The position numbers and the translations under genes are program-made. From the NCBI GenBank assembly GCA_965112155.1, contig OZ218107.1: a stretch of DNA of 64,000 nt; one strand, 5' to 3'. Source of the stretch: Podarcis liolepis. Lineage: Eukaryota. Positions 14,315 to 60,719 of the stretch are shown here, in pieces. A model generated the notes under the pieces. That model did not search any database and was not told where the DNA came from. It saw only the letters and a program-made list of their open reading frames with translations. Positions within the stretch are counted from its first letter, which is position 1, and each line of letters begins with the position of its first letter.

Positions 14315-14835
14315 ACACTAGAACTTGAACCAATGAATTCAAGTTACAAGAAAGGAGCTTCCAATTAAACATCAGGAAGACCTTTCTGACAGTAAGAGCT
14401 GTCTGACAGTGGAACAGACTCTCTTGGGAAGTGGTTGACTCTCCTTCCATGGAAGTTTATAAGCAGAGGTTGGGTGGCCATCTATCATGGATGCTTTAGC
14501 TGTGATTCCTGCATTGCAGGGGGTTGGAGTAGATGAAGAAGAAGAACAGTTTTGGATTTGATGTCCTGCTTTATCACTCCCCTTGAGGAGTCTCAAAGCG
14601 GCTAACAATCTCCTTATCCCTTCCTCCCCCACAACAAACGCTCTGTGAGGTGAGTGAGGCTGAGAGACTTCAAAGAAGTGTGACTAGCCCAAGGTCACCC
14701 AGGGGCTGAATGTGGAGGAGCGGGGAATCGAACCTGGTTCACCAGATTACGAGTCCAGCACTCTTAACCACTACACCACACTGACTCTAGATGACCCTTG
14801 TGGTTCCTTCTAACCCTAAAATTCTATTATTCTAA
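14315..14835 (+). mobile_element. CR1 LINE 3' end interrupted by a Squam3 SINE
   Basis: aaacatcaggaaga..tttctgacagtaagagctgt..cagtggaacag...ttgcagggggttgga.tagatga[SINE]cccttgtggttccttctaacc..attctattattcta. Confidence 0.85.
14535..14786 (-). mobile_element. Squam3-type CORE SINE with (CTT)n tail
   Basis: gaagaagaa.agtttggatttgat...ggtcacccag...ctcttaaccactacaccacactg; TSD tagatga (14530-14536 and 14788-14794). Confidence 0.88.
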
Positions 14836-21280: not shown

Positions 21281-22361
21281 ATCCGCAAAATGTACTTAAG
21301 TACGTAAGTACTTCCTTGAAAAATCTCTATTGATCACAGGAGTAGGAGATACATGATTATTCTGGTTTGCTATATATCTAGATATTGTCTTGATGAACAT
21401 CCCTCACATTCTCTGTTAAACTGCCCTCTATCATTCCTCAAATTCTACTCTTAAAAATAATGAACACAAGAGTATTCTTTCATTGCTCCCTTGCACCAAC
21501 ACAAAGCGAAATCCAGTCCTAGTGATCTCTGCATTCTAAACTTAACTAGTACACCAGCCCTAATAAAACATTCCCATACTCTTGCTTTTATTTATTTCCC
21601 TTACTTTTTTTTTTTTACCTTTATATCCTGCCATATGGCCTTTATAATGCTTACCTGTGGCTTAATTGTCAGCTATGTCTCTACTGTATGAAAACTAGAG
21701 ATGAGATGGCTGGGATATGTTAACTGACCTCTTTTCTATTTCCCCACAGAACTATCCCCTGTTTTGACTGACATTATATTTAGTAATGCATTTATTTTTA
21801 GCTTTTATTCTTCCTGGTATCTATTGTTAGGGCACTCTCTCTCTAGAGGCCAACAATAAAAATAGCAGTTGACAGCAGCCTAATTTTGGAACTGTTACTA
21901 TTTTTCAAGTTGCTGTAATTCACATCTGACTTCTGGTAACACAACTGCAACAATTAAGATCAGATCACTACCAAATATTCGTAACCACATATCAACTAAT
22001 TAAAAACAGAAGCTATTAAATGTACCAAATAATAAAACACCCCATCTTTAAAAGACTTATCACCTATGCTTTATCAATACAGACACCACCAAGCATTAAA
22101 AAATTCCAGGAAAGATCTCAGTGACATTTGTGATGGAGCTGTTCCAAATGTACAGCAGTTTGTATGCAAAGACAATATTTTCAGAGGCATTGAAATGTTC
22201 CCTTATAGACCTTCATACATTTCAGAACATCCATAATTTTGTACCTGCTCTCATCCATAGCTGCCCACCCAACTCCCAAATTTCAGCTGCCAGGTTCAAC
22301 ACCTTTGTTAGGCCCACTTTCTCTTGCTCTTCATAATCCTCAACCTTCATGAATCTATATA

Positions 22362-22831
22362 CTGTATTTTTCGCCCTATAGGACGCACCTTTTCCCCTCC
22401 AAAAATCAAGAGGAAATGTGTGTGCGTCCTATGGGGTGAATGCAGGCTTTGGCTGAAGCCTGGAGAGCCAGAGGGGTCGGTGCGCACCGACCCCTCTTGC
22501 TCTCCAGCCTTCATGGACCTCTCCGCCAGCAGTGGGAGCACGGCGCTGGGCTCCCGCTGCTTGCGGAGAGTTACCTGCATGCTGAAGCCTGCGCGCGCTG
22601 AGCTCAGCGCGTCCAGGCTTCGCGGACCTCTCAGTAAGCAGCGGGAGCCAGCGCTGGGCTCCCACGGCTTGCAGAGAGCTGCCTGTTTGGGGGCTGGGGT
22701 TGGGGGAAGCCCGGGCTTCCCCTGCCCCAGCCCCGTACCTGGGGGAAAAATAATTTCCCCCCTTTATTTCCTCCCAAAAAAAACTAGGTGCGCCTTATGG
22801 GACGGTGCGTCCTATAGGGCAAAAAATATGG
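22362..22831. mobile_element. Non-autonomous Tc/mariner (Tc2/pogo-like) MITE
   Basis: TIRs ctgtatttttcgccctataggacgcacc / ggtgcgtcctatagggcaaaaaatatgg; TA TSD on both sides. Confidence 0.88.
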
Positions 22832-24289
22832 TATATCCAGCTGGAATTGACTGTGTGATGATATCTGAAACAGATGAAAGTGATGAAGAAGGAAAGGAAT
22901 GCTTCTTAGACTGGTCATGTGAGTTATCTTAGGCAATGGGACCATCCATTTACAGAAGTGCACAAGTACTCTGTGTGTTTGTGTTTGTGTGTGTCTGTGT
23001 GGCAACCATTTCTGAGCAATGATCCGCAAGGAAGCCATATTTCACCACTGCTGAAAGTGAATCAGCTAACTCTAATTAGGATCCTAGCCTAATTAATTTG
23101 TGTGTAGGTGTGGGGAAAGAGGAAAAAGGGAAATGAATGACCGGCATGTAAAAAGCTTTTGTGTTATTTGCAAATCAGCATCTAGCACATATCATATCTG
23201 ATGCAGCTGCAAAATAACTTTATTGAAGAAGGAAAGTGGAGCATCTCTAATTAACTCTATGTTTAACTGCCTGTTGATCTACTGTTGTCCCTCTACTGCA
23301 GTTTCTAGGCAGTACAGCAAGCAAAAGAAAGTAGACCAGGCGGTTACAGTTCAAAGCACTGATAGCCCATGATGAAGCTCTAGCTGTGGATAACAGCGTA
23401 GGTATCTACAGGGACGCTTGATCCTGCAGAGAAAGTTCCTACTCGGTATCTTCCACAGCTCATGTTCATTGATGCACTGAAATTGTGCGGCCCCTTCATT
23501 CTGTCCCACATCACAAGCCCTTGGTCTGCTTCTGTAATGAGCCTGCTTCTTTCTAGTGACATTTGCCTTCCCCGATAAATCCCCTTCTTATACCCAAAAG
23601 AATATTTTAATTACTCAGAGGAGGAATAAAACCCATACCCTACTGCTCCTTATCAACTGCCTTAGAACTGTGGTCGCGAACACCAAAGAGCTTTCAAATA
23701 ATCTGTGCCTCTGGCAGCCCCTGGGTGCAAGCTAGATAGTATGGCTATCATCAAAATGCTAGGCTAGCAGGACGGGGAGCTATTAGTATTGCAGCACCAC
23801 CGGTATAATCACTTTCCCACATTTATTCATTTATTTGTGAGGCAGGTGAAGAAAAAGCTCCTGGAGAAACTGCCTGAAGAAAACGTTCCAAATAAAGTCA
23901 GACATGGAGAGAGGCCCCACTGACCCTCCCCAAAATGGAAGAAAGAAAGAAACTTATCTAACCTCTGTCAGCAAATACCTGTTTGCAAAACAAATGGCTG
24001 TAGAGCTGGTTAGGGAAGATACGGAGTCTCATTTTCTGCTTTTTTTAAAAAAAAAGTCTGAAAGGTTTTTGCATCGTGGTTTCTGTCAGATTGTTGAGTT
24101 CCAACAGCTGGGCCAATAGATTTGCAAAAACACAGTGGCATGAAATAATTTTGAATGCACGCCAATAGTGTGTTTTCTTCCCACTGCCACTAAGGCTTCC
24201 AAAGCATATATTATTTGGGTCTAGTCCTTCTAAAAAGCAGAGAAGCAAATTGTACTTCAGACACAAGTGACACAAAAGCCACAAATCAA

Positions 24290-29448: not shown

Positions 29449-29697
29449 GGGGCCAGTGTGGTGTAGTGGTTAAGAGTGGTAGACTCGTGATCTGGTGAAC
29501 TGGGTTCGCGTCTCTGCTCCTCCACATGCAGCTGCTGGGTGACCTTGGGCTAGTTACACTTCTCTGAAGTCTCTCAGCCCCACTCACCTCACAGAGTGTT
29601 TGTTGTGGGGGAGGAAGGGAAAGGAGATTGTTAGCCGCTTTGAGACTCCTTTGGGTAGTGATAAAGCAGGATATCAAATCCAAACTCCTCCTCTTCT
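29449..29697 (+). mobile_element. Squam3-type SINE
   Basis: gccagtgtggtgtagtggttaagagt...gggttcg...gatatcaaatccaaactcctcctcttc. Confidence 0.9.
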
Positions 29698-31099: not shown

Positions 31100-31560
31100 A
31101 GCTGCTATTCAGTTACCTTGTATAAAGACTGATGTTAATAATATGTTGCACTTTTTTTGGTTGATTGGTCTGTGATTTCACACTTGAGTCCTTTAAGAAC
31201 TCTCTGGATCCATTGAATTGACACTATTCAGGCTGCTATTGCTGATTGGTTCTGCAACCTTCTTTGTCACCTCTGTTGGGAATTGTATGTGTTATATATT
31301 GCCTGAATAAATTGGTTTGGGTGTGGATATCTCCCTAGCATCTTCTGCAGTGAAGACAAAGCAAATAATTTGGTTAGATTCTCTGCAACATCATTCTTTG
31401 TTCTTCCTATACAAGCTTTGCTACTTTTCAATTCATCCAGCTTCGTGTATATTTCAAGAATCAATTATTTTTTTATTCTTTATAGTAATTTGATCTTCAG
31501 CTTTCTTCTTGGCTTTGTTGCAGATTTACATTTTGTTTGTCACGTATGGTGCCTTTCTGC
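31100..31560 (-). mobile_element. Degenerate CR1 ORF2 fragment
   Basis: Minus-strand frames give FVFTAEDAREISTPKP and IQRVLKGLKCEITD, resembling CR1 FASVFTAEDVREIPTP and HPRVLKELKCEIAD. Confidence 0.75.
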
Positions 31561-33719
31561 AGTTAGCAACAGAAAATTTATACCTTTCCGGCAACTGGTA
31601 CGGAGGTAATAGTAAAGGAGCAGGAACAATGAGGCTAGAGAGATTCAAAAAGCACTGGATGAAAGAAGCGGCTTTGGGGACGAATATGGAGGAGGTGAGA
31701 GAAGTAGCCTGATAGGGTTGCTATTTTAGTGATAAGAGGTAGCACAGGATGAGAGGCAGTGATGGAGTGGAAGACAAGGCAAATGCACAAGCCAGCAGCT
31801 GAGTCAGTGCAGTAGAGGGAATATTAAAAAAGACAGGCAGGGTGGAAAGGTTTCAATATAAGGAATAGATGCTTGGATTAGATCATATGAATTAAGGTAA
31901 AAAACCAGTGTTTTATCATTGGCACCAGGGGCAAATTGTCAGTGGGGTGCTCCAAATACAAGCTTCCCCGTCATGGAAAACCTCATTCCATTTTGACCTG
32001 CAATACAAGGACCTTGCAGTGTGCAATGAAGGCTTCTTATGAGGACAGAGTTCAGAGAAGTGTCTGTTCCTTATCTGGTGCCCTCCAGGCCAGGAACCAC
32101 AAACATATCATCACCCTCTGACTCAAGATGATGAGTCCCCAGTCTCATCAAAATCAAAGACTGGAAATAAGACGAAGTGTATTTTAACTACCCAGCCTTC
32201 TCTTCAAGGGAGGCAAAACTTACCACATTGTAGGTCTTGCCAGCTTTAGGTCATTGCAGAGACAGCATCTCCCTGTTGTTGCCTTAGAAGAAGCATGCTT
32301 CAGCCAGAGGAGACCCCTTTGATCTGTCCAAGGTCCTGATCTTATCTGATGCTGATCTTGACCTGACTCTGACTAGCCTTCATCAGACTCTAGCCTGCAT
32401 GCCTGGAAGCATCAAGCTCTCATAGCCAGCTAACCAGCTCCATCAGCAGAAGCCCTGTGCAAGGACTTTTGCTTTCACAAGGGGGTATCTCTCCCTCTCC
32501 GCTCCCTGAGCGCCGCCTGATCATGATAACCCCTATAATTGTGGGGAGGAACAGGAGAGAGCATTGTTCTGTCGGGCAAGCTGGAATGCTGCACCAATGG
32601 AAGAGCGTGACATTTAATTTCACCCTATCAGTGGTTGGAAGTGGGGCTACCTGGTGTCTCAGTATCTTGTCAGGACTTTTGAGGAACTATGGTGACTAGA
32701 TCTAGGGCAAAGAGGTCAGTTCCTGCCCTCAATGGAGTTGCTGGCAAAGGTTCTCTTCTGAATGAAATTAAACAATTTTACAAAGTACTTTGCCAAAACT
32801 ACTTTGCCTTAATTTCTTAAGACAGAGGTGATGTTGTTTGATGCAATAACAACAGCAAGACCCCACTGTGAAATCAGTTCAAATTTGCCAGGTGGTAGCC
32901 CTACTGTGTACAAATTGTCAGAGAGACCACACACTTCTGTCTTTGGTCACTAAATCTCTAGAATGGGACTCTGAAAGTTTTCTCATTTCCCCACAAGTTT
33001 TAAAGGACTTAAACTGATCATTTTGAAAGTCAGCACAATGTGCCAGTCTCTGATGGCCACTGCTTCTGCAGAAAGAAAGAAAATATCCCTATGTATAGTG
33101 TGCTAGAGAGACCGGTAAGCTGTCAACTCCCATTCAACATCAAACAAGACTTGGGTGACCTTTGATTAGCCTGATGTTACCCTGCAGCGAAATGAGTTAG
33201 TGGCTATTAAAGATGAAGCACACACAGTACCTGGCATTGCAAAAGAACATCTAGTATTTATTCAGCTATGAAGACTTTTAAAACTTAATACATAAAGCAA
33301 TGAGTTTTATTAGAGAGTTTTGGAGTTTTGAGTGGGTTCAGTTTTTAGCTTAATGTCTTCTGCAGTGAAAACACTTTCAGATGCATTTTCAGCTAAGCTT
33401 GAACAGATCAGTCTATGCTCGCTTCACATGTGTATGTTCTTAAGACCATCCATCATCAATCTGCATCTTCTTCTTTTTAAAAAAGCATTTTACATGCATT
33501 TTAGTGTTTTGGTTTTTTTAAGCCAGGAGCTATATTACAAATTTTGTAGAAGTGTGAAAACTGAAGGTTAACTGCATCCTGATCCATAAATTAGTCTGGG
33601 AAGTGTGAATCAGGTTGACGTTCTTAAAAATGTGAACTGCATGAAATCCTTGAGCATTCCTATTTTCATTTGAAAATATTCACATTTTTTTTCCATGCCA
33701 TGAGTGTTAGGTCTTAGAA

Positions 33720-35907: not shown

Positions 35908-36086
35908 NNNNNNNNNNNNNNNNNNNNNNNNNNNNNNNNNNNNNNNNNNNNNNNNNNNNNNNNNNNNNNNNNNNNNNNNNNNNNNNNNNNNNNNNNNNNN
36001 NNNNNNNNNNNNNNNNNNNNNNNNNNNNNNNNNNNNNNNNNNNNNNNNNNNNNNNNNNNNNNNNNNNNNNNNNNNNNNNNNNNNNN
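35908..36086. other. Assembly gap (179 N)
   Basis: Run of n. Confidence 0.99.
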
Positions 36087-37376: not shown

Positions 37377-37493
37377 AGATTAAGCTATTGGAGCTTCATT
37401 GCTTCATTTTAGGCTATCTGTGCAATTCTCAGAGAGACCAAAAAAAAGTGTTAATTCAGATGGAAGGGTGGCAGGAAAAAGAACTCATCAGTA

Positions 37494-37736
37494 CAGTGGA
37501 ACCTCGGGTTACGTACCGTACTCCGTACGAACGCTTCAGGTAACAAGCTCTGCTAATCCAGAAGTAGATGCTCCTGGTTGCGAAACTTTGCCCTGGGATG
37601 CGAGTGGAAGTCGTGTGCCAGCGGCGCAGTGGCAGCAGAAGGGCCCATTAGCGAAAGCGCGCCTCAGGTTAAGAACGGTTTTGGGTTAAGAATGGACCTC
37701 TGGAACGAATTAAGTTCATAACCGGAGGTACCACTG
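37494..37736. mobile_element. Tigger-like Tc/mariner MITE
   Basis: TIRs cagtggaacctcgggtta / taaccggaggtaccactg; TA TSDs. Confidence 0.88.
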
Positions 37737-40700
37737 TAACAATTATAGGTGTGCCGGACAGCTGCTGCTTTTGCTATACGGGACATGAGCATGCATTAAC
37801 TTCCACCCCAATAGAGCACTATAGCTCCACAAATGCTATTTAGAGAGGTGATTATAAACCAGGCCAGTTTCTCCCTTGTACTGTGATGCAATAACAAAAA
37901 AAGCTGTTGAATATAATTGCTATGGAGATGCAAAGCAGAAAACTACCAAGGTGCTCCTAAGACCAGAAAGCTCTCTCAGGAATGTACAGGGCTCATTTCA
38001 GCAGGCACCTTCATTGTGTGCAACAGAACAAAATGCACAAGTGGCAGCTCACAAGAAATGTGAATACATAACAGTATTTTGGATACAAGGCAGCCAGAGC
38101 ACTGTCTGTCCAGAAGTATTTATTTATCATGAATGTGCTTAATGTTGCCTTCTCCCCCTCTGACAAATCTGAGAGTGCTTTGCATTCTGAAGGACCCACT
38201 GACATCAGTAACCATAATATTCCACACAGTACTGATAGGACTTCATTTGAAATCCAGTGTTCTTGGCAATAAAAAAATGGTCTTGCCAAGTTGGAAAAGA
38301 GTGAGAGGAGAGCTTACATGCTGTGGAATCTAGGAGGCAGGTCATATGTCAAAAGGAATAAAGAAACTGGCCCAGTTTTGCTCAGAGAAAAGAGAATTAA
38401 AGATCAATATCTGTTAGGAATTTCTAAGCAGCAAAAACTGTTGCCTGGATCAGATGCAATGATCATGGCCTGAGAACAAGCTGTATACCAGATTCTCCTC
38501 ATATCTCCCATTCCAACCTCTTCCTGCATGCCCGACTTATGAAATCACCGTTTCACATAATGTCTGAAATGGGATACTAGTTTTAAGTGCACTTAAAGCA
38601 ATAATATTAAAGTAGTAAAAGCAGATTCTCTGAGTGAATCCTAATGTGGGAGTGGTAAGATACTGAGAGAAGCCACCACTTCTTGAACTCTGAAACCTGG
38701 CTCTTTTTCATTATTAGTATTTTTCTCCACTTAGCTTTTTAATAATGTTTCCCTCCCATTGGCATTAAAATTACTTTGCCATCTCTAGGACAGGTGCAGT
38801 CCAGGGGCATGTTGTGAGGAATGAGGGAGCCTTGGACCCAAGGCCACCAGAAATCAACTCCCCACACTATCCCTTGCAAGCCCAATGACTGACGACTGAT
38901 GACACAACACAGGTGGTATGTCTACTCCTGTGAGGCTTTCTGTGGGTGTACCAGCAGGTTGTCTGGGGTTATAAGTGCTGCCTCACCAGTTGATAGGCAC
39001 TTAACATTGCTTCCTAAAATCTGATGAAAATTAGGTTTGCACCCTGAGGCTGCAATCCTATACTGACTTGCCTGAGAGTAAACCCCAATGGCAATGACTT
39101 CTGAGTAGACAGGTATAGGGTTAACTTTTTTTCCTAACTCCAAGAGCAGGTTAGTAAAATAACAAGCTATCTAGGGCAGGGATTTCTAACTTTCTATTCC
39201 CGTGGCCAGATTAAGCTATCTGAAATTACTGAGGTCCATCAGTCACAAAATGGTGGCAGATGGAGGCAGAGTTTGACATAATCAGCTGGCAATTACTCAC
39301 ACCATTCCTACTGATATTCCATTTCTGGATATTGCTACCTTTTTGTCATAGTAGCTTTTGTGGCAAGGAGTTTCTTAGCTTGGCTTTCCTCAAGCTATGT
39401 ACCAAATTTCAAAGGATGGCTATGTTTCGATTCTTGTATTGTTTTAGAAAGTGTGGATTAGGTAGGCTCATTTTTCAATTAGAAATGAACTGAATTTCTC
39501 CCTCATCCAGGTCCACTGTTTCAGAGACATTGATTTAAGCGGAATTGTAGACTTTCCTTCACTGGATTTTTTAAAAAAAGAAATTCTGGTCAGGCATCTC
39601 TTGGGAATGCATAAAGTACAGGTGATTCTACCTCATAGGCTGGGGACTGAACTCCTTGACCCAGTTTATAACTGTATGCTCAAATGTAGGACTCTTTTAA
39701 ATCACTTGCAAGCATCAGCAAAAGAGCTGGCATTGGGCAAAGGTTCAAACAACAACTAGGAATACAGTTGTTTTAAAAAAAGAAATGCATTCTTTTTTTA
39801 AAATTTCATGCACAACATTTCATCTTTTCATTTCCTTTACATACCAAATCTCACTTAAATCCGTTTGGAAACTATTCAGCTACTGATTTTCCCTTCCCCA
39901 CCCATATACCCACATCCCCCCCCCCATATTTGCCATAGGTTGATCTGTCAGGAGAGGCTGCTGAAGCACTGTTGATTTGCCCTCAGCCATGCCTGGGTAG
40001 TGCAAGATTGCCCTCTGGCCAGCAATCAGAGCAAACAGATTCTCCTAACTTCTGCCTGACTGCATCTGTTCCAAGTGCTGCCATGCACAGCAAATTAGCA
40101 ATCTTTTTTTCCCCCTTTCCCTTTTTTAATGTGAAACAGGTGTTCAGGTCATAAGCTCCCATTTTTTATATATATGTAAAAATATGTTTTCTCATCCTGA
40201 ACAAGTATTAACCAGTTTGACAAGTTACTTTTTAGTTAAGTATTGTGAGTCAAGATTGTCTGTTTGGGCCTTTGTGTGGATGTGTGAGAAGACTTCAGTT
40301 GAGGGCACACAGAAATGTGCTCATAAAAGATCAAAATGATAACAAAGAATGTTTTATTGTGCAAATTCATCCACATTATATTATTTAAAGATGTACTGAA
40401 ATGCTATTTAATTAAATATGACTCAATAGCAGAATGCACATTCGACTTGAGCAGTAAAAATAGATCTGCCACGAGATCTTACTCATCTTGACAATCGTAG
40501 TGCTGTGTATAAGGAAACTTCTCAGGAAAATATTTTACTCCCCATCAAATCCTGAATTTGACACAAATTCTCACCCTTGCCCTCAATTACTGTCGGCACA
40601 AGCACTTCATAGACAGAGCATATGTGAGAAATGGGATCATCTTAATAGATGGTCCTGGTTGCGGGCAGGCCCTCAAACTGGTTTCCCCCTCACAACCTGG

Positions 40701-40839
40701 CATGGGTGGAGCTATCACCCTTACGCCAGGGTGGCACCACAATCACCCAGGGCTATTGCCCAATCATTTTGAAGGGTGATTGTGGGGGAAAGTATAAAAG
40801 CGGCAGCGCGACGTGTGCCAAGCTCCTGCTAGCTCATTA

Positions 40840-41097
40840 CAGTGGTACCTCGGGTTACATACGCTTCAGGTTACATACGCTTCAGGTTACATATGCTTCA
40901 GGTTACAGTCTCCACTAACCCAGAAATAGTACCTCGGGTTAAGAACTTTGCTTCAGGATGAGAACAGAAATCGTGCTCCGGCGGCGCGGCAGCAGCAGGA
41001 GACCCCATTAGCTAAAGTGGTGCTTCAGGTTAAGAACAGTTTCAGGTCAAGAACGGACCTCTGGAACGAATTAAGTACTTAACCCGAGGTACCACTG
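40840..41097. mobile_element. Tigger-like Tc/mariner MITE, young
   Basis: Perfect 18-bp TIRs cagtggtacctcgggtta / taacccgaggtaccactg; TA TSDs. Confidence 0.92.
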
Positions 41098-41468
41098 TAT
41101 CAACCTTGCATACTGACTATGGATACATACTGAAACTTAATGGCACTTGTATCACAAGTAGCATGCAATGTGGAATAACGTGAGCATCACTGACAACATA
41201 ACGTTGGATCCGTGTTCCAACAGGGCTATTTTGAAGAGGAGAAGGAGATTGACTTTCCGTGTTTTGAACCACATTTGTTGAGTTTTCAAGAAATTTCTAG
41301 TCAACATACTGGCTTAACCCAAATATTTTACACTAGATAGTTGAATGGGCCCTATGTATAAAGTATCTGTGCCAAAAGTAAGCATGTATATGCTTAAAAG
41401 GGAAAGGATAACTGTTTGAATTCTGAGCCTAATAATAACAATGCTGTTCAAAAGGAAACACAATGTAA

Positions 41469-41822
41469 AAAGGTAAAGGTAAAGGGACCCCTGACCATTA
41501 GGTCCAGTCGTGACCGACTCTGGGGTTGTACGCTCATCTCGCTCTATAGGCCGAGGGAGCCGGCATTTGTCCACAGACAGCTTCCGGGTCATGTGGCCAG
41601 CATGACTAAGCTGCTTCTGGTGAACCAGAGCAGCACACGGAAACGCTGTTTACCTTCCCGCTGGAGTGGTCCCTATTTATCTACTTGCACTTTGACGTGC
41701 TTTCGAACTGCTAGGTTGGCAGGAGCAGGGACCGAGCAACGGGAGCTCACCCTGTTGCGGGGATTCGAACCACCGACCTTCTGATCAGCAAGTCCTAGGC
41801 TCTGTGGTTTAACCCGCGTCCC
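41469..41822 (-). mobile_element. Sauria SINE
   Basis: Full body; degenerate TSD agg(a)aacacaatgta (~41453-41467 and ~41825-41838). Confidence 0.93.
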
Positions 41823-44239
41823 AGAGGAACACAATGTATTTTCTTCAAATATGCTGGTTTTGTTTTCTATTATTTGTTTTGGGAATTTAATTTCAAATGC
41901 TTGCTCCTCAGAAATGACTTATTTTTAAACCTTGCTGAACACCAGCAAGTGTGAATTTTGAAGAACGGAGCTTCAGTTTGTTGGTTGGTTCAGGATATAC
42001 AAATTAGGTAGGTTCTTATTAAAACAAGCAAACTTCTCCACCATTTCAATTCATTTCAAGAATTGCCCCTTTCAAACTTCACATCACAGTCCAGTATCGT
42101 ACACGCCTAAGTCTGCATCATTCACACATTGCCCTCAGCTGCTTGGGATTGCATTGAGGGACAGAAGCTTCCATGTTGCATGTGGATGGCACCTATTTCT
42201 CACTTTAAGATGTAGGGCATCATACCAATTTCATCTGAAACTCTTATTATTCCTCCCCTCCTTTTATAGACCCTACGAGGGAACTCCCGGTTGTTGTTTT
42301 TCTCTCTTCTTGGTGACATAAACACGCTGATTCCAGCACTCATCTCTTTCTGCGGGGCTGCTACAACATTGCTCTTTTTCATCACAGTCTGCTCTGGTCG
42401 ATTAGACTCATTACTGTGCACAGATGTCCATGGTCATCTTTCTAGATAGCTACCATTACCTGAAGGTTAATATTGCTTAAAAGTAACTTGCATATTTTTT
42501 ATTTTATTTATTTTTTTTGACTTTATTACCACCCTTCATCATTAGATCTCCCAGTGGTTCACAAGATACAAGGTAAAAGCACAAATGAATCGTTTTTTAG
42601 TGTACAATTTAAAAAGAATGTCTTGGACTTTATGTCTGCAAATAAAAAAAGTACTATAGAGTCCCTTTACAAAGCCTTCACTTATAGAACCAACCTCCAC
42701 CTATCCTTTACTAAACATGCACTTCTGAAAAAAGTGAATTCACTGTAATAATTAATTTATTTATTTCTTAAAATTCAAAGTTTTATTAAGTTCTACAATA
42801 AAAGACAAAGAGCGCACACATACAAAGTCAGAAAAACCCCTCTCCCAACAGAAAGCATTTTTCTTGACAACAAAGCAGACATTTAGTAAATTTATATAAT
42901 TTATTTGCAAGTAGTAGTAGAAGCTAATTTAATGTTATGGGGCATAGCCCCCCCCCCATTTTATAGTATAATTGTTACTTGGCAAACTCCACATCTGGGA
43001 TTTTCCAAATGCAGCTAATTTTAACACAGGGTGAGTATTTTGGAATCTGCAAAATTAGGACTATATCAGCTTCAAAATTGGAGAAACTATTGTTTTTAAT
43101 GGATGTTTACCAAAAATTACATTGGAGAGAATGGAGTAGATCGTTGCATTCAAGTAAAGCTTTGACTTTTCAAAAGACACCAGTTGACAGTTTCCCCTCA
43201 AGAGCTTCCAGTGTAATTTTTCAGTGAAGAAGGGGGCAAGTACTGTACTATAATTACGGTAATTGATACACATTTTCAGACTCAGCAGTGCACAATAAAA
43301 CAAATCACTAAGAACAAAGTCAAAACTCACTTTGTATTACTTTCTCATTTAACACTGATACCTTGTTTGGATTGAACAAGGAGAAATGTATTTTCCGTAC
43401 AGATCACTTGTTACAGAATAATTTTTGGCAGCTTGAGATTTCATCCACACTCAAGTCTTAGAGCCACTTTTCAGTTTATAAACTATTTTTCTCCAGCAGA
43501 CTTAGATTAATTTTTTTCCTCCGTATTCTGATGTTTAATACTTTTTGACATAGATAGCCTGATGGTTCCCAGGTTTGATTGGACTACCAAATCTATTAAT
43601 CCATTTCCTTTCCTGCCTCAGGGAGCCATTAGATTTAATGAGGCAGTCATCATCACATACTTGAGTCACACTGGCAATTGGCTTCCTGATAATTGGATTA
43701 GCGGAATACCCTGGGTTGGAGGATTCACTCTGAGTTTGCATATTTATGTATGAGCTATTTTGTTCTGATGTATAGCTTATATGAAGTTCAACTTTCTGTA
43801 CCCAAAGGTGTGCATTATCTATGCAGGGTTACATAAATCTGATTATAGCATAGGTAGCCAAGTCAGCTCACATAGACGAGATGCATTCCACCAAGTCATG
43901 TTTCTTAATAGTGTTCTTATGACATCTAATGTAAATGATGAGGACAGAAGGGAAAGCATTCTGGCAGCTCCTGATTTCAGGATCATTGTTTGCTGGCAGC
44001 TCACAAAACTAGAATTTCAATACCTTCTGGAAGCATGGTCTTTTTTCTCTTACTGGTACTTAGCAGCTTGAAATGTATAGAAGGCTACTTTGCCTTTTTT
44101 TAAAAAAATAATAATAATTTTGTTTGTCGTTTTTTTTTAATTCGTTGTTTAATGTCCTAGTGTTTGTTCAGATATAAAATCATGTATTTTAGAGAAAAAG
44201 AAGGGAGGGGGGAGACATTACCACATTTGGTTATATAAT

Positions 44240-44614
44240 GCAGGTGGCGCTGTGGTCTAAACCACTGAGCCTCTTGGGCTTGCCAATCAGAAGGTTGGTG
44301 GTTCAAATCCCTGCAACAGAGTAAGCTCCTGTTGCTCTGTCCCAGCTCCTGCCAACCTAGCAGTTCAAAAGCACACCAGTGCAAGTAGATAAATAAGTAC
44401 TGCTGTGGCAGGAAGGTAAACAGTTTTTCTGGATGCTCTAATTTCCGTCATGGTGTTCCATTGCACCAGAAGTGGTTTAGTCATGCTGGCCACATGACCC
44501 GGAAAGCTGTCTGTGGACAAACGCCAGCTCCCTCAGTCTGAAAGCGAGATGAGCGCTGCAACCCCACAGTAGCCTTTGATCGACTTAACCGTCCAGAAGT
44601 CCTTACCTTACCTT
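44240..44614 (+). mobile_element. Sauria SINE, second subfamily
   Basis: Head gcaggtggcgctgtggtctaaacc (A box) and ggttcaaatcc (B box); tail cttaccttacctt. Confidence 0.92.
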
Positions 44615-45130
44615 CAGATAATGCTTACGGACCACCTGAACAATATTCATCGGATCAGGTAGAAAGAGTTTTGTGATGGTACAAGGGAATAATTGGTCTT
44701 GCTGGTGCTGTGACCAAATTGTGCAGAAGCATCCGATCTCTTATCATTTAGTATGACCAACCAAATTAAGGGACAGGGAATCCTTGGTGTAATTGTGGAT
44801 TTTAAAGAAACAATTACCATATTTTTCCATGTATAACATGAGGCTTTTTTACTGTAAAATAATGTTCAAAATTGGGGGTCATATTATACATGGATAGTGC
44901 TGAGGGATTGATTGCAGCCGCAAGCAGGAGCTTGTCAGCGGTAATTGGGTGGATGAATGGTGACTGCGGCAAGGGCTGCTTTGGATTGGCTGTTGATGCA
45001 GTAGTTGGGTTGGTGATTGGTGGCTGCAGCAAAGGCTGTTGTGGATTGGCTGCCACTGCAACAATTCTTCATATGCAAAATAAAAAAATTCCTTCCAGTA
45101 GCACCTTAAAGACCAACTAAGTTAGTTCTT

Positions 45131-45169
45131 GGTATGAGCTTTCGTGTGCATGCACACTTCTTCAGATAC
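45131..45169 (-). ncRNA. Minimal type I hammerhead ribozyme (PLE-associated)
   Basis: Reverse complement reads GUAU-CUGAAGA-A-GUGUGC AU GCACAC-GAAA-GC-UC^-AUAC: canonical core, stem I GUAU/AUAC, stem II, palindromic AGCU stem III. Confidence 0.75.
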
Positions 45170-45180
45170 ACTTCTTCAGT

Positions 45181-45219
45181 GTATCTGAAGCAGTGTGCAT
45201 GCACACGAAAGCTCATACC
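45181..45219 (+). ncRNA. Hammerhead ribozyme copy with a core substitution (CUGAAGC), probably impaired
   Basis: gtat ctgaagc a gtgtgcatgcacac gaaa gc tc atac. Confidence 0.55.
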
Positions 45220-46319
45220 AAGAACTAACTTAGTTGGTCTTTAAGGTGCTACTGGAAGGAATTTTTTTATTTTGACTATGGCAGACCAACACGGCTACCT
45301 ATCTGTAACTGGAACAATTCTTCATATGATTACCGACTGCTAATTGCAAGTGGGCAGACACTTGGCTGTTTGGCAACGCATGTGATTGGCAGCATTTGTC
45401 AGTGATTTTTTGCCTCACCCCCCAAAAAAAGCTCAACAATTCTGGGCAATCCTTCCCCCATTTTCTTAAATTGGACTCCCTCAAAATAGGGGTTGTCTTA
45501 TACATGGGGCCGTGTTATGCATGGAAAAATAAGGTAAGCAAACGTATAAATGTATTTCAGTTTCTGCATGGCACTTGGAGAAAAATTATCAGTGACATAA
45601 CATTTTCACCAGCTGTTCAAACATATTTGTGTGTACAAGTTTCAGTCCTCTGGCTGCAGTTAGGCATGCCTAAGCTCATTGACTTCAATGGGCTAATATT
45701 AGATATTTAACATCTATGTAAAAGATGTTAAAAAGTAGAGAAGCCTTCTGTCTCCTTGGCTTTTTATAATGTAAAGAACCTTTTTTTATAACATACCTGA
45801 ATAATAAAAGGATATAATTTGATAAATAAACAGTCCAAACTAGAATGACTCTTGTTTTCCTTTAAGAAGAGGGACTCAGCAAAGGTTTATTAGAAGGCTG
45901 ACTTATCTTTGTGTATTGATTAGACCATTAACCACTTACCTTGCTTTAAACAGCAAGGATACTTGATTGCAACAGGCTACTCCAAACATGCCCTGGGGAA
46001 CTACAAATAGAGATAGCACAAAGAATTATGACAAGTGATTTCAGCCTTTTAAGAACACTCCAACCTATTCAGTAACTATGTTAATTTTGCTAGAAGAAGA
46101 AAGCCACTATATTCACTAGTATAACTGTGCTAGAAAAACCAAAATGTAAGTTCACATTAATTGAAAATTGTGGGGGATATTCTAAGCTTGACTTTTAAAT
46201 TTTGAATTTCACAAGTGTTAAATAGTGCTTTTGAAATCTGACTTTGAGGAGCAACTTTAAATAATTAGCACATCACCAAAGGCTTCTGAGTAAGCTTAGC
46301 AGTCAAGGAATCAAAGGCG

Positions 46320-47085
46320 AGGTCCTCTTTTAGATCACAAATTGGTTAAATTGAAGGAAGCAAAGGAATAAATTGGCAGTTCTCCCAATGGAGAAGTTGC
46401 CCCCCCCCCCAAGAATCTGTATTGGGACCCATGCTTTTTTAATGTGCTCATAAATGAGATCAAGTTCAGTGTGAGAAGTGAGGTGGCCATGTTTGCTGCT
46501 GATATTAAACTGTTCAGGGTCATTAAAATAAAGAGATATCATGAAGAACTCAAAAAGAAACTCTCCAAACTAAGTGAATGGGTGGTAAAATGGCAAATGT
46601 ATTTCCATGTAAACAGGTATAAAGTAATGCATGTCGAGGAGATGATAGATAGATAGATGAAGAGTTTGGATTTGATATCCCGCTTTATCACTACCCTAAG
46701 GAGTCTCAAAGCGGCTAACATTCTCCTTTCCCTTCCTCCCCCACAACAAACACTCTGTGAAGTGAGTGGGGCTGAGAGACTTCAAAGAAGTGTGACTGGC
46801 CCAAGGTCACCCAGCAGCTGCATGTGGAGGAGCGGAGACACGAACCCGGTTCACCAGATTACGAGTCTACTGCTCTTAACCACTACACCACACTGGAAGA
46901 TAGATAGATAGATATATGCTTATGTGGTCTGACCAGCAGTGCAACACTAGGGTGGTAGTGGATAGCTTGATGATGATGTCAGCCCAGTGTTCAACAGTGG
47001 TGTAAAAGGCAAAGTCAATGCTAGGGATCTTTAGGAAAAGAAAGGAAGATAAAAAAAATTATGTTGCAATGCCATTGTAGAAATC
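46320..47085 (+). mobile_element. Decayed CR1 reverse transcriptase fragment interrupted by a SINE
   Basis: ORF 46444-46656 INEIKFSVRSEVAMFAADIKLFRVIK...LSKLSEWVVKWQM.F.V..KVMH matches the CR1 FADDTKL region. Confidence 0.88.
46658..46896 (-). mobile_element. Squam3-type SINE
   Basis: Near-identical to the 14535 and 29449 copies; TSD gatagatagataga (46644-46657 and 46899-46912). Confidence 0.9.
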
Positions 47086-47114
47086 TAAAATAGCATAAAA
47101 TGGTATAAATGGCA

Positions 47115-47810
47115 TAAAATAGGCCTTTATTGATTGCAGGCGTGAGCAGTTTGGCTTAGGCAATTAGGTGAAGCAAGACTATATCCTGACTCCTGCCCAT
47201 CTGCAGGAAGTCCCGAAAGGGTCCACCACTGATAGGGGGAGCCCTATGATATACATCAGTTAAAAGCACCCCAGGGTCACTGATGGCATGGCCCATGCCC
47301 AGGCTTTCAATGGGAACCACCACCCCGGATCCCTTTAACGGGATACCCTTAACGTGGAGGGGCAGGCTGGAGGCAACAACCGCCCCTCCCATGACAAGGC
47401 TTACCCAATGCCTAACCTTACAAAGTTGTGACGATTGCTATTAAGTAGGCGAAAGCCAAATGGCTGGTGCCAATTTGCCAAGTGGATAAATTCCTACCCA
47501 GCCCCAACAATCAGGCAACCAACCTGAGTCATAGCAAGACCATAGTCAAGCAACACAAGAAAAGAGGGTAGGCGGGCTGGGAGATCTGATGGAGGGGAGG
47601 AATGGAGGCCACCCCCAGCCATGCCAAGGTTTAAACAGCATGTAGCCATGCCTGTGGCTAACCCAATTGGTCAGCTAGGGGGCATTATGTGGCTGGGAGT
47701 CCTAATGACGTGGGCAGCATCCCTCTGACCACAGCAGGGTCACTGGGAGGTCCCGGATATCTTCCCGCAATGCGGCTGCCCCAAAAAGGACAGCCGTCTT
47801 CTGCCCTGGT
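47115..47810 (-). mobile_element. GC-rich LTR-like (Ngaro/DIRS-like) non-coding repeat
   Basis: On the minus strand CCAAT (~47668), tttaaa (~47632) and AATAAA (~47128) occur in LTR order; sharp GC shift; no TG..CA ends or TSD found. Confidence 0.45.
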
Positions 47811-49281
47811 TTACTTTGGCATATTTCTCCCATGATTCTTTCCCACTTCTGCAGTAATCAGTTGTTAAAATTTTCATACATCTATTTAAATGTGTATTTA
47901 AAAGTTCATTTCATCTCAAAAACACATTTTAAATTTGTGATCTGATACAGTTAAACGCTTGAAAACATGTGCAGAAGTGCAAAATCCAGTAGACAGGTAA
48001 GTTCCAATCTGCACAAGTGTGGATCAGGCCAATTCAATTCCTGTTGGCATTTGTAAAGATTAGATCTGTGTGACCAACCAAGGGCCATGGAGCACTGGCT
48101 GAATGAAGTTGCATTAGAAAAAAAAATCCATTCAAAAAGAGGTTTGGACCTTAAGGCCATTCTCTACAGTCCTCTGTGCACATAAACATATGCAAATTGG
48201 CAATGCCCTCCCCCTTTTTTATTCAGGAAGGGCAACCTTATCTGCTTTGATAACTGAAATGTGTGCAAATACTGAGAAGTACCACAAAGACTATGGAAGC
48301 AGCTGAGTTAGGCTATCCCAAACAATAAATCAAAGCCGCATTATTTAGTTGAACTCCAGAGATGAAACACCTAGAGCAGCATGCATATTTTTGTTGATTT
48401 AAAGTCCTCAATGAGCTTGAAATATCATCATGCTCTGAAATGAAATCTGATAGGATTGAAAAGGAAAAAGATCAGAAAGGAGGCCTTGCCCCAGCTAATC
48501 TAACGCTCAGCAGCATGAAACAATTTAGAGCAAATAGCCTGTCGCTATTCTGCACCACATCTTATGCCCTTAAGAAGAAATGAAATACGATCCAGAAGAT
48601 AATGACTGAATAAACAAATAAAAAAAATCTTCCAATGGGGAGAGTGGGAGGTATATGGCTTGGAACATTGCTAATGGCTGACTTCGCTGCAATACACCAG
48701 GGAGCCGAGGTTGAATAAAATATGTTTAGCCTGGATCCGAACTGCCAGCCTCCACCCTTTGATTAAAAATAAAAACCGTTGTATCATGACATTCAGCTTC
48801 CTCAAACCTGCAGCCCTGATGAAAAAGCATTTTATAGAGCGCTACACTGCATTACATTCCAGACATAATGGGTTATGCCTAGTTTTCTCCTATGTAAATG
48901 GGTGTTGTAAATGATTGTTTGCATGCAGCTTGATATCCCTTATGAAATATTATGGAGAAATAAATAAAAGATGAAAGCTGCAAAATATATTGCTTAGCCA
49001 ATACTAGACATTGGATTCTCTAATGAAAAAGTGCTGAATCATTATCTGGGAGCTGACATAATTTCAGATTCATAACTTCTGCAATTTTATGCTTATAGCC
49101 CACGAGGAAGGACCAGCCACTACATTGCTTTTACAATGGAAAAGAATAGAGTTCACGGTAACGGCTTCTGAAAACCACATGGTAAAAACACTGGCTGCCC
49201 CTTTTTGATGGACTAGTGTAAAAGTACTGAAATAAAATTGAAACTTACTGTAAAAAACATTGTGAGTTATGTTATTTACCT

Positions 49282-50153
49282 TAATTGAATATCTGTCTGG
49301 AGGTGGTTGGAGGATGGATGGCGGCTAACAGATCGAGGTTGAATTCTGACAAGACAGAAGTACTGTTTTTGGGGGACAGGAGGCAGGCAGGTGTGGAGGA
49401 CTCCCTGGTCCTGAATGTGGTAACTGTGCCCCTGAAGGACCAGGTGCACAGCCTGGGAGTCATTTTGGACTCACAGCTGTCCATGGAGGCGCAGGTCAAT
49501 TCTGTGTCCAGGGCTATTTACCAGCTCCACCTGGTATGCAGGCTGAGACCCTACCTGCCCGCAGACTGTCTCGCCAGAGTGGTGCATGCTCTAGTTATCT
49601 CTCGCTTGGATTACTGCAATGCGCTCTATGTGGGGCTACGTTTGAAGGTGACCTGGAAACTACAACTAATCCAGAATGCGGCAGCTAGACTGGTGACTGG
49701 GAGCAGCCACCGAGACCACATAACACTGGTCTTGAAAGCTCTACATTGGCTCCCAGTATGTTTCTGAGCACAGTTCAAAGTGTTGGTGCTGACCTTTAAA
49801 GCCCTAAACAGCCTCGGTCCAGTATACCTGAAGGAGCATCTCCAACCCCATCATTTTGTCCAGACACTGAGGTCCAGTGCTGAGGGCCTTCTGGTGGTTA
49901 CCTCGCTGTGAGAAGCCAAGTTACAGAGAACCAGGCAGAGGGCCTTCTTGGTAGTGGCACCTGCCATGTGGAACGCCCTCCCACCAAGATGTCAAAGAGA
50001 AAAACAACTACCAGACTTTTAGAAGACATGTGAAGGCAGCCCTGTTTAGGGAAGCTTTCAATATTTAACGGACCATTGTATTTTAATATTTTGTTGAAAG
50101 CCGCCCAGAGTGGCTGGGGAAACCCAGCCAGGTGGGTGGGATATAAATAATAA

Positions 50154-55965: not shown

Positions 55966-57474
55966 ACCATTCAAGGAATGGCACGTCAACAGCCTGTCAC
56001 TAGCAGTGGAATTCATGGTCCCATTTCCAATGCAGTCCCAGTGGAAGTCAGGTTTTCCAGTCACTATACTATACTATAAGCACTTGAAGAAGTGAGATAT
56101 TTGATTTATATCCAAGTTGCCATGTACACAGGAGGTGTAGATCAGGTCAATTCATTCTGCAATATGGAGTGAATGACTTCCTCATGCATTGCTACTTAAA
56201 AGAGAGACTGGCCTCTTTTAGAATTTTCAGTTGCCAGGAGAGCAGCGTTGGAGCAGGCTGGCTATTGAGACTGGCAGCCAATAAATATGATGCTGCTTTT
56301 TTGCACTTAATGAAATCTGATAGCCGAAAGCATGTTGCCAGGTCAAATGATATTGCTTTGGTTTATGCAATTAGATTATCTATATATGTTACAATAAAAT
56401 AAAAAACAGAAGTGAAATGTTCCCATTCCATCTGTTTATATATGTAAAGAAAAAGGAAGTTAAAAGTTTCCGTTCAATCTGTTTCATCAAACAAAATATA
56501 GTACTGCATGACACAGTGTGAGTAAACTACTCAGCTCTCTCCCTATGCATATATTTTAGCATAAAATTCTAAGCTCTATAGACTCCTAGCAATTACTCAG
56601 TGTTAAAGGTTGGGGCCTTGGCAGCTCAAATGCAATTCCATATATTCTATATGTGCTCTCACTCTCATGATTTCACGTAGACCAAGAAGCTCTAGAGAAC
56701 ACCACAGTTTCCCTTCTGATGTGGTATTTTCCATTTGCTTCAAAAAAAGGGGGAGGGGAGCATCTTCATGTATATAAAAGCACATATTAAGTGTCTCTTG
56801 GAGGTTCAGAAGTATCTTGTTTTTTATTTAAAAATGCCCTTATTATAGCCTTGCCCAGTTTCTGAGATGTTCAGAGCTGCACTCAAATGCTGAGTTCCAA
56901 AATCACAGTCCAGATTCTTTATTACAGGAAAGACTTCCCTTTCTCCTTTAGCAGCACTATCCTATGCATATTTACTCAGAAGTAACCCCTACTGAAATCA
57001 GTGAGGCATATTCCCAAATAACCATGGGATGAATTACAGCCTAAGTGAGAGAAAACACTTTGCACAGGTGCATGAAAAGTGCCTGTGTGCATGGCAGAAT
57101 TCTAATCCCTTTGGAAAGAGTAAAAAATGGTGCCCCAGGCTCTTGAATTTTATAACAAAATTCTCTTTCTGTTTCCATAGTTTTTGAGCTTTTTATGGGG
57201 GGAAAGGTGATCGACCAGTAGATCTCGATCGACCTGTTGGACAGCCCTGTTATAGAGCATATAATGGGAAATGCCCACGTTTTGGAAGAATTAAGGTTGA
57301 TGTTCATGAACATCTCACCTGATCTCTAGTTGGTTGTTCTGCTTACCAAGAGGTAGAGAGAGAGGGCAGAGGCAGCAGTTAGTGCAGTGCAAGGCAGATG
57401 CACCAATGGGGCAGTTGGCTTGGCTTGGCTGGTGCATTTGCACCATGCAAACATCATTGCCTCATTGACTCTTT

Positions 57475-57825
57475 AAAGGTAAAGGGACCCCTGACCATTA
57501 GGTCCAGTCGTGGCCAACTCTGAGGTTGCGGCGCTCATCTCACTTTATTGGCTGAGGGAGCCGGTGTACAGCCATGTGACCATGTGGCCAGCATGACTAA
57601 GCTGCTTCTGGTGAACCAGAGCAGCGCATGGAAACACCGTTTACCTTCCCGCCGGAGCGGTACCTATTCATCTACTTGCACTTTGAGGTGCTTTCGAACT
57701 GCTAGGTTGGCAGGAGCAGGGACTGAGCAACGGGATCTCACCCCGTCGCGGAGATTCGAATTGTCAACCTTCTGATCAGCAAGTCCTAGGCTCTGTGGTT
57801 TAACCCACAGCGCCACCCGCGGCCC
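57475..57825 (-). mobile_element. Sauria SINE
   Basis: Full body with intact head; short degenerate TSD ttg.ctcttta. Confidence 0.93.
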
Positions 57826-59162
57826 ACCCTTGGCTCTTTACCTTCTGGTAAACAATGGATGCAATTGACCATAGGTCAAATGAGCTCCACTTCCCACCAC
57901 ACCTTTTGCTACTGCTTGCAGCATAAGTCCAACCTGTGCCAATTCTGAACCATGTAGGTCTACAGAATGGCTTATTTGACCGTGGTGTGAAATATATGTT
58001 TTTAATATGTCACTGCTGGAAATCAGCATGGATTTTCTGATTAAGAATATAAGTTAACTTTGCTTCTTTTTCTGCAGGCAACCTATATAACATTGGTATC
58101 GGTCGTATTCTTTCCTACTTTTGTCTAGCTTTCCTAACTTCCCCTTGCAATTATTACTCACTTTCTCTTTGAATCTCCAATACATTTCTATTTTCTGGAA
58201 TTAGAATACATTCATGTAGCACTAATCATCACCACATCTAAGGAACGCAACATTTGCTCAGGTATAATGAGTATCACAGAAGCAAAAATCATTAATTCTC
58301 CTGGGTGCAGCTATTCCAGTGACATTATCTGACCACTGGTGTTTTAAATAAAGGCATGGGCTCCAATCTGGTTCCAGTGTAACTCCTTTGAAATTATCTG
58401 AGCAACTCAAGAGAGTCGTTTTGGGCCACTCCACTTTGCTTCATGGTGTTTTAACGGTGGTCCGTCTCACCAGCGTTCAGAATAAAATAATTATTTTTCG
58501 GGAAATTGCTTTGGAGCCATACCCTTATCAACACATTACAGATAGCTAACTAACCATTGCCTCAGTTGTTTGACAAATTAATCAAGTAAATCTTGCCTTG
58601 CTGCGCTTTTCTGAAATCTATAAAAGATAATGGACGGAAAAAACGGACAAGATGTTAGATTTCATTTAACTTCTGGTTTATTGCCTACTTCGCAAGAGAA
58701 TGTAAATAAAAACCCATTCTCCAAGCTATCATATTTCCCATAAAATGGTCACAATCTGCTGATGCAGGAGCTATTCTCTACAGTTCCTTGCATGCATATT
58801 TTACCAAATGGTGAAGATCAGTATGCCCAACAAGTATTACAACAGCCAACGTAAATAAATTACCGTGTCAGGAGTTCCAAGTGGTCGAGAAGTGGTGGGC
58901 ACAAAGATGATGCTGTTTCATTTTATGAGTGCATGCAAAGACAGAGGTGATAAATTATCCTTATTGGGTTTGCTTACAGGAAGCATCATTCTCCTGGAGT
59001 ACCACTTTGAACAGCGTACTAATCACTTGGAAATGTACTGGTAAAAGAATGCAGAAAGGACAAACCACACTATAGAGCCTTCTGGGTGACAGCAATTTAA
59101 GTGTTCTGTATATGGAGACGTCAAAGAATTCTTGTAAAAACAGAAATTGCTGACGTTGGCTT

Positions 59163-59520
59163 AAAGGTAAAGGTAAAGGTACCCCTGCCCGTACGGGCCA
59201 GTCGTGTCCGACTCTAGGGCTGCACGCTCATCTCGCTCAAGAGGCCGGGAGCCAGCGCTGTCCGGAGACACTTCCGGGTCACGTGGCCAGCATGACTAAG
59301 CAGCATCTGGCAAGCCAGCACCAGCACCGCACACGGAAACGCCATTTACCTTCCCGCTATAAAGCGGTACCTATTTATCTACTTGCACTTAGGGGTGCTT
59401 TCGAACTGCTAGGTGGGCAGGAGCTGGGACCGAACGACGGGAGCTCACCCCGCCGCGGGGATTCGAACCACCGACCTTGCAATCAGCAAGTCCTAGGCAC
59501 TGAGGTTTTACCCGCATCCC
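59163..59520 (-). mobile_element. Sauria SINE, CpG-rich third subfamily
   Basis: aaaggtaaaggtaaaggtacccctgcccgtacgggccagtc...; many intact CpGs; no clear TSD. Confidence 0.92.
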
Positions 59521-60719
59521 ATATCTGGAACAGAAATCAATCCAATGTATCTGATTGGTATTTGCTGTTATTGTTGTGTCAGTCTGCAATTGATTTGCAA
59601 TTGATAAGGTTTCCCCCTCCACTTTGCACCCTACTTTCTTTTCATTGAAATGAATAGGGCAGAATAACGTAATTCCAACATAGTTAACATAATGCACAGA
59701 ATTAATTAGGTTAGTTCGTAATTTCACCACAGCAGACAGTGAAACAAATAATACAGTTTTGGGTGGAAAATGGTCGGCAGCAGGATGGAGACGTGACGTT
59801 CCATATGGTGGAATGGAAAATGTTGCCTTCCAGAATCTTATTCCAATGATATTATCCTTCTTGAAGATTAAGCAATAAAAGTTTAAGTAATTATCGTATG
59901 CCTGGGAAGCAGGACAATGACTACCTTTTAGGAGACATCAGTCACTTCTCAATGTCCAACACAGTTTTGCACTGCCTAAGGAGTTCCAATGGACCAAAAT
60001 TAAGTCCATTTGGATCTCACAGAAGCGGGTGGGAAGACACTCTACCCCTTCTGAGCCGTGAAAGGGATAAGCAATATTTATTGAGTCATTTACTGAGTCA
60101 ATATTGATTTCTTGAATATACTTTAAGTACTTCCCTTTGACACTAACAAGGGGCCCCAAAGCAGTTTGCATCAGTACTAATATAGCTGATGAAGTATCTC
60201 AGACCTAAGCGTCAAAGCATCACAGATATATTAATAATAATGTCTAAGTTAAAACTTATTGGAAACTCTGCTTTCCCTTCTAATCCAAATGCAGGTAGTT
60301 GTGTTTTGTGATCTATACTTTTTTTTTTAAGCCTCTCTCCACCAATTCCAATGGGACTCCTTATTAACACTGTCATTTTTGTGTATCAGGTACCTGATCA
60401 CAGTCGGAAACTCTTTATCGCCCTTGTTTATCACTTCCTTTCGTCTAGAGGAATAGTCAAGAGCACTATTGTTAAATGTGTTAGGCCGCCGTGGGGATTG
60501 ACTGCCTAGGCAAACAACACTTTGATCTCTATTTGAGTGCTTTGCTAGCAATCAAAATAAGTAGATCAGGCTTTGGACAAGACTTGAAATCAGGATAAAT
60601 ACTGCTGAGGATAACAACTAAGAGAAGCCTCACTAAAATATTGCATCTCTTAAGTGGGAATACTCCTTTCCTCTGATCTAAAATAAGCAAGTATGGCAGA
60701 TACAAAAGTCATTAATAAG

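Follow-up and report, generated by a model that had tools for sequence, protein, structure and literature searches.

A probable stub of a Penelope-like retrotransposon with two opposed hammerhead motifs in the lizard Podarcis liolepis

The stretch of DNA analysed here (the window, 64,000 nucleotides of contig OZ218107.1 from the Podarcis liolepis assembly GCA_965112155.1) contains an insert of 237 bp (45076-45312) bounded by an exact 16-bp target site duplication (TSD), which cannot be extended on either side. This duplication is 75% A/T and holds an ATT internally, not at its edge. The insert consists of two inverted arms (Table 1) in which 45076-45172 pairs with 45274-45178, over 97 bp and around a 5-nt loop when the closing T-A pair is counted, and the sole mismatch opposes T45159 to C45191. 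A previous sequence-only reading had described 96-bp arms with a 7-nt spacer and one mismatch, which is equivalent to this arrangement, and a perfect 16-bp TSD, which is indeed exact (45060-45075 and 45313-45328). Two features were absent from that description: a 38-nt tail found next to the right arm only, and a 12-nt direct repeat in the centre, where the duplicated segment carries the consensus letter of hammerhead position A9. The tail includes an ATG at 45278 that remains open for 11 codons up to the TSD and is possibly the start of the ORF of the element. The longest exact local inverted arm measures 89 bp in the window, versus 11-12 bp in five out of five shuffles, and the full hairpin has a predicted RNA folding energy of -180.7 kcal/mol (z -26.7). 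Microhomologies of 4 nt between target and element are also observed beside both outer junctions (45055-45058 with 45308-45311, and 45070-45073 with 45277-45280).

Table 1. Features of the insertion and its host element, in window coordinates (X1, X3 and X4 are public sequencing runs, see text)
Feature	Position	Strand	Remarks
Host MITE	44817..45534	.	~465 bp minus insert; TA on both sides; 25-nt terminal inverted repeats
Left TSD, AACAATTCTTCATATG	45060..45075	+	16 bp, 12/16 A/T
Left arm, inverted tail-less copy of the element 3' end	45076..45172	-	97 bp
Intact minimal type I hammerhead motif	45132..45169	-	Strict match to the min-HHR descriptor
Centre, 12-nt direct repeat (45154-45165 = 45168-45179)	45154..45179	+	5-nt loop 45173-45177
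Right arm, direct copy of the element 3' end	45178..45274	+	
Hammerhead motif with C replacing A9 (45191)	45181..45218	+	Descriptor match with position 9 relaxed
One-sided tail	45275..45312	+	38 nt; right arm only
Right TSD, AACAATTCTTCATATG	45313..45328	+	X1, X3 and X4 contig alignments begin at ~45313

The insertion interrupts a MITE with inverted ends of 25 nt (44814-44838 and 45513-45537) that are 92% complementary. These ends, together with the flanking TA, bear out the earlier proposal that the palindrome is nested in such an element, which is presumably Tc1/mariner-pogo/Tigger-like. A second TA-flanked element of ~470 bp with terminal inverted repeats occurs at 22362-22831, and its first 45 nt are 62% like the host MITE. 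A GC-rich ORF of 206 aa (22312-22929) was discarded as a gene, as it lies largely within this second MITE, whose GC-rich interior mimics an ORF. The window also holds a SINE-like family, which we take to be Sauria SINE-like, with six near-complete copies and a partial one that are 72-90% identical (940-1308, 12435-12813, 20412-20533, 41468-41834, 44240-44609, 57468-57825, and 59159-59535), as well as two LINE reverse-transcriptase fragments, one at 20530-21207 (minus strand; RVT_1 match, E 5e-13) and another at 49285-49764 (plus strand), similar in translation. A 245-bp repeat is present in three copies that are 89-94% identical (14537-14783, 29453-29697, and 46655-46896), the third of them with GATA-type repeats on its two sides (46641 and 46896), while a different high-copy repeat, which contains a 16-bp tandem internally, has two copies that are 74% identical (37488-37742 and 40834-41103). 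An assembly gap of 179 N spans 35908-36086.

Hammerhead motifs had been proposed for both arms, and both are present, in the minimal type I form with a palindromic stem III. The suggested check with Rfam models returned 20 matches to E 10, none of which is a hammerhead family, and no match at the gathering score in 64 kb; for this reason, a descriptor of minimal hammerhead ribozymes (min-HHRs) was built from the published consensus (PMC4209133). Under the strict setting, the 64 kb contain one match to this descriptor (minus strand, C3 at 45165); freeing position 9 adds another (plus strand, C3 at 45185), with 0 matches in 300 shuffles under either setting. The minus-strand motif is composed of a stem I of 4 bp, CUGAAGA followed by an extra A, a stem II of 5 bp, GAAA, a stem III AGCU, and C17, with the predicted cut between 45136 and 45135; it thus shows the CUGANGA core, the extra base between positions 9 and 10.1, the G10.1-C11.1 pair, the palindromic 15.2-16.2, and NUH, besides stem I and GAAA. 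The plus-strand motif departs from the CUGANGA core at position 9 only and retains the remaining min-HHR features, and its cut, if active, is predicted after C45214. The location of the arm mismatch at A9 of the plus copy was therefore read correctly from the sequence, as C45191 is the single point at which the descriptor fails. A9 is a conserved base of the hammerhead core, and a C at this position is thus expected to impair catalysis.

A mutational scan of a type III hammerhead recorded low activity when single positions of the CUGA-turn region were changed, although A9 is not named in the relevant part of that paper (PMC9901934), and a literature search found no paper pairing "A9C" with "hammerhead". 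Single min-HHRs have been reported not to cleave, and dimers to cleave at a low level (PMC4209133). Stem II with its loop forms a perfect 14-nt palindrome (45193-45206 and 45144-45157), capable of pairing between two molecules. When two monomers were cofolded, their stems II paired as an intermolecular duplex, a result that was not accepted as evidence for an active dimer.

The architecture of arms, tail, and TSD, together with the hammerhead motif, supports the previous assignment of this palindrome to an inverted pair of Penelope-like pLTRs. The insertion unit of Penelope-like elements (PLEs) is described as an inverted 5'-truncated copy beside a direct copy, with a tail of 30-40 bp at one end (PMC8557442; PMC3846280; PMC8969392); inverted pLTR, tail, and TSD are described together in PMC3846280, and a one-sided tail also appears in the work on Poseidon PAc (PMC11167929). 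The locus studied here presents an inverted truncated copy, a 38-nt tail at one end, a TSD, a pLTR hammerhead, and membership of a high-copy interspersed family. No ORF for a reverse transcriptase or an endonuclease was found at the locus, so that membership of the Penelope class rests on architecture and ribozyme motif. In comparison with canonical endonuclease-bearing PLEs (Arkhipova et al. 2013, PMC3846280; Craig et al. 2021, PMC8557442), the same head-to-head copy, one-sided tail, and TSD are observed, and both share a palindrome at the junction and possibly an ATG near the boundary between pLTR and tail. In contrast, truncation is extreme in the insertion reported here, which lacks an ORF, and its TSD has 16 bp versus 8-10 bp in the rotifer examples of PMC3846280.

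Regarding the ribozymes, paired min-HHRs that lie 100-700 bp from each other on opposite strands are already in print (PMC4209133). The metazoan PLE min-HHRs of that study (Cervera and De la Pena 2014) have in common with the present motifs CUGAAGA with the extra A, G10.1-C11.1, GAAAGCU-H, a 4-bp stem I, and a 5-bp stem II. The closest listed entry is that of Chrysemys picta bellii (Fig. S3), which is not marked there as ORF-associated, and no entry of lacertid type occurs among the hammerhead entries examined. Each stem of the turtle entry departs from the present motifs in a single compensatory pair, stem I with GCAU/AUGC versus GUAU/AUAC here and stem II with GUGGG/CCCAC versus GUGUG/CACAC. 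The turtle entry also lacks the 14-nt stem II palindrome of the Podarcis motifs, which have C17 instead of U and, in the plus copy, C at position 9.

A related system in another lizard is Poseidon PAc from Anolis carolinensis, whose protein cuts and extends both strands and prefers AT-rich DNA (Frangieh et al. 2024, PMC11167929). According to the same work, its reverse transcription starts at two sites that delimit the tail, the template is uncleaved RNA, and the hammerhead cleaves only in the presence of the element protein. PAc is likewise a lizard PLE with a hammerhead, and the apparently shared traits are a tail between two reverse-transcription start sites, extension of both strands, a possibly AT-rich target, and an uncleaved template. 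However, the PAc ORF starts at stem II, whereas in Podarcis the ATG within the arm (45199) runs into a stop after 9 codons and the open ATG lies in the tail, so the latter element probably belongs to another family. Non-LTR retrozymes (Li, Clavereau, Pollet 2026, bioRxiv 10.64898/2026.07.22.740005) are also non-coding, PLE-derived, and equipped with a type I hammerhead, but they are organized as head-to-tail tandem units that can dimerise in cis, in contrast to the single head-to-head pair reported here. No published name was found in the literature search for the element family of this palindrome. The pattern of an inverted pLTR with hammerheads on opposite strands is already published, and the locus is likely an ordinary stub.

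The abundance of the family was approached through four public runs aligned to 40920-50140, three of DNA type (X1, X3, and X4) and one (X16) guessed to be RNA. At 45264, the summed contig depth, which is not a copy number, amounts to 2.46 million in X1, 1.07 million in X3, and 1.04 million in X4. Unique flanks have a depth of ~2-100, and the arm exceeds them by 4-5 orders of magnitude in all three DNA-type runs, which shows that it belongs to a very abundant repeat. No second copy of the family was found within the 64-kb window with nhmmer, blastn, or the descriptor. The exact motif was found in 0 viral and 0 metagenome contigs, and a gapped version in 0 viral contigs, one metagenome contig (L001), and one genome contig (L002). 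Both hits were rejected as family copies, since they fail the descriptor and neither aligns with the window; they are due to chance or too decayed. The eukaryote-like metagenome contig (L001:3993-4035) shows a hammerhead-like core, CUGAAGA-A-GUG...CAC-GAAAGCUC, with broken stems, either a decayed relative or a chance match. In X3, one joint runs from the tail end (45309) to 41020 and may mark a further insertion of the family into the repeat represented by 37488-37742 and 40834-41103.

The identity of the arms and the TSD, together with contigs that end at the right TSD, supports the earlier claim of a recent insertion. Arms and TSD taken together differ at one of 113 paired positions (0.9%, 95% interval 0.02-4.9%), and the long flank contigs of X3 and X4 differ from the window by 0.7-1.5%; as this range overlaps the interval, identity alone dates the insertion loosely. 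All six contigs listed at 45348 (three from X1, one from X3, and two from X4) end 36 letters away, which corresponds to the first base of the right TSD. X3 bears the organism label of X1 but comes from another sample; both flanks are present in it, with a single contig at 45348 at single-copy depth. X4 derives from a second organism, and its contigs also begin at the right TSD; its record 27 aligns from 45313, and the 95 letters that precede this point do not follow the tail. These contig ends suggest empty sites in X3 and X4 and, consequently, an insertion that is young and polymorphic or private. No explicit empty-site joint occurs among the joints listed, and the contigs that enter at 45313 could instead represent paralogous copies of the MITE: X4 record 27 accumulates 6 differences in ~136 letters, versus 9 in ~1315, 9 in 916, 3 in 401, and 7 in 340 in the X4 flank contigs. 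Beside the insertion, the window reads CA where contigs read CG at 45348 (six of six contigs, from X1, X3, and X4) and at 45394 (one contig per run), likely two CpG decays within 70 bp of it.

The integration may be pictured as follows. The GIY-YIG endonuclease of the element would make a staggered cut, 16 nt apart, at an AT-rich site of the older MITE, and both 3' ends would serve as primers for copying the element's uncleaved RNA, one from the end of the tail and the other from a second start site located 38 nt upstream. Both cDNAs would stop just 5' of the hammerhead and would then be joined by microhomology, leaving the templated 12-nt duplication, while C45191 would have arisen by miscopying or by a point mutation afterwards. 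Since both arms span the predicted cut site, the RNA templates appear to have been uncleaved, and the presence of A at position 9 in two of the three copies (the arms and the central duplicate) indicates that the C at 45191 is derived.

Twin priming alone leaves the shared stop of the arms (within ~5 nt) unexplained. It is accounted for if the inverted arm of the same element was made by fold-back self-priming of a single cDNA, an origin that seems possible but on balance unlikely. The minus-strand cDNA would end in a 5-bp hairpin that overlaps the 5' end of the hammerhead, extend by 7 nt, re-prime on a second 5-bp match, copy itself, and stop 38 nt short of the tail, with C45191 arising after the insertion. 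Consistent with these steps, the minus strand 45206-45175, folded as DNA, has a 5-bp hairpin at its terminus and leaves the 3' end free (z -1.6), and the longer stretch 45206-45168 gives the extended hairpin, in which G and A are mismatched at the variant site (z -2.3); both the 12-nt duplication and the common stop follow, the latter being better explained than by twin priming, and self-priming from palindromes at inverted junctions has been argued for in PMC3846280. Nevertheless, this route would require the 5 nt 45175-45179 to be native family sequence, and it does not explain why the shortfall equals the exact tail length, which two reverse-transcription start sites do explain (PMC11167929). 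Moreover, another X1 junction keeps the left end at 45171 and resumes at 45207, an asymmetric centre. It is also rather doubtful that the pivot is programmed, that is, that a 5-bp hairpin over stem I and CUGAA folds the nascent cDNA back to prime the second arm, the 12-nt duplication being a frozen two-step self-priming.

Whichever way the palindrome was formed, its head-to-head geometry makes the sense ribozyme the second arm to be transcribed in either direction. In a read-through RNA, the antisense arm would be made first and would zip with the sense arm, so that neither ribozyme would fold, and as each strand carries one sense copy, the required dimer would be possible in trans only. In equilibrium predictions, forcing stems I and II in context takes 52-62 kcal/mol on the plus strand and 45-57 kcal/mol on the minus strand from motif completion onward, versus 0.2-6.1 kcal/mol in solo arms, which upholds the earlier idea that the hairpin out-competes ribozyme folding. 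The same reading had proposed a dsRNA of ~96 bp as a substrate of ADAR or Dicer; the geometry agrees with the hairpin fold, while the ADAR and Dicer part found no evidence here.

A host gene was searched for in several ways. In a Pfam scan of 470 of the 501 stop-to-stop ORFs of at least 48 aa (the 31 omitted lie mostly in SINE or other repeats), the single match above the curated cut-off was RVT_1 at 20866-21207 on the minus strand, which belongs to a LINE fragment and not to a host gene. Neither splice-site heuristics (36 plus-strand and 39 minus-strand candidates; 9 and 2 in a stricter run) nor amino-acid composition (41 and 31 candidates), both with approximate weights, gave a strand signal, strand skews are flat across the window, and no tRNA was found in it. 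The candidate exons 31494-31709 and 7960-8190, both on the plus strand, were compared with 16 and 26 possible homologues, respectively, and none held up, which is a weak negative. X16, the run guessed to be RNA, lacks depth in 13 of its 30 bins, each of which is unique flank; the joints listed include no exon joint, and the run says nothing on expression. The insertion site may lie within a long intron.

The plus-strand host transcript assumed in the sequence-only reading was thus left with neither a host exon nor a strand signal behind it, and the idea that the A9 mismatch reflects selection against a sense ribozyme that would cut a plus-strand host pre-mRNA is very improbable. The only mismatch does affect a conserved base in the core of one copy, single changes in the CUGA turn lower activity in a type III hammerhead (A9 is not named in that part of PMC9901934), and Xenopus introns and exons hold fewer non-LTR retrozymes than expected, with no orientation analysis in the text examined (bioRxiv 10.64898/2026.07.22.740005). 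Yet no host exon or strand was established, and the ribozyme is predicted to be sequestered in either direction, so that an intact copy is predicted to be harmless too. In addition, single min-HHRs did not cleave (PMC4209133) and the anole hammerhead needs the element protein (PMC11167929), and a lone mismatch hits the core by chance in 13 of 97 cases (~0.13; 6.7% for the named arm), the arm having been chosen post hoc with n=1. Equally hard to credit is that the palindrome constitutes a self-propagating non-autonomous unit, be it of retrozyme type or a fold-back DNA element, or that it gives a functional hairpin RNA, such as a miRNA or siRNA precursor. The hairpin is very stable (-180.7 kcal/mol, z -26.7) and Rfam miRNA-precursor models match it down to E 3e-14, but every match falls under its gathering score (the best with 72.4 bits versus 211, and 67.6 versus 90) and 0 families pass in the whole window. 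No tandem head-to-tail units of the retrozyme kind were found at the locus, and the one-sided tail makes the ends asymmetric about the TSD, which counts against a palindrome that propagates itself. Other contigs show different centres among the joints listed, from 45171 to 45207 in X1 and from 45165 to 45259 in X3, and therefore it seems that the palindrome is not mobile as a whole. The insertion is likely, then, a dead-on-arrival stub from a Penelope-like retrotransposon of very high copy number, with two hammerheads predicted to be trapped in one hairpin and an A9-to-C change that is likely neutral.

As one of very many stubs of a known class of retroelements, this single locus matters little. 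Its value resides in the clean record that it keeps of the integration reaction (the TSD, the two start sites, and the templated centre), a part of the Penelope cycle that was not validated in PMC11167929. A genome-wide count of the family, unlike a single locus, could test fold-back against twin priming as well as the purging of intronic hammerheads by orientation. If the pivot were programmed, the hammerhead region would act as a DNA fold-back signal in integration, independently of RNA cleavage, and a young, polymorphic, and high-copy lizard family would allow genome data alone to separate fold-back from twin priming.
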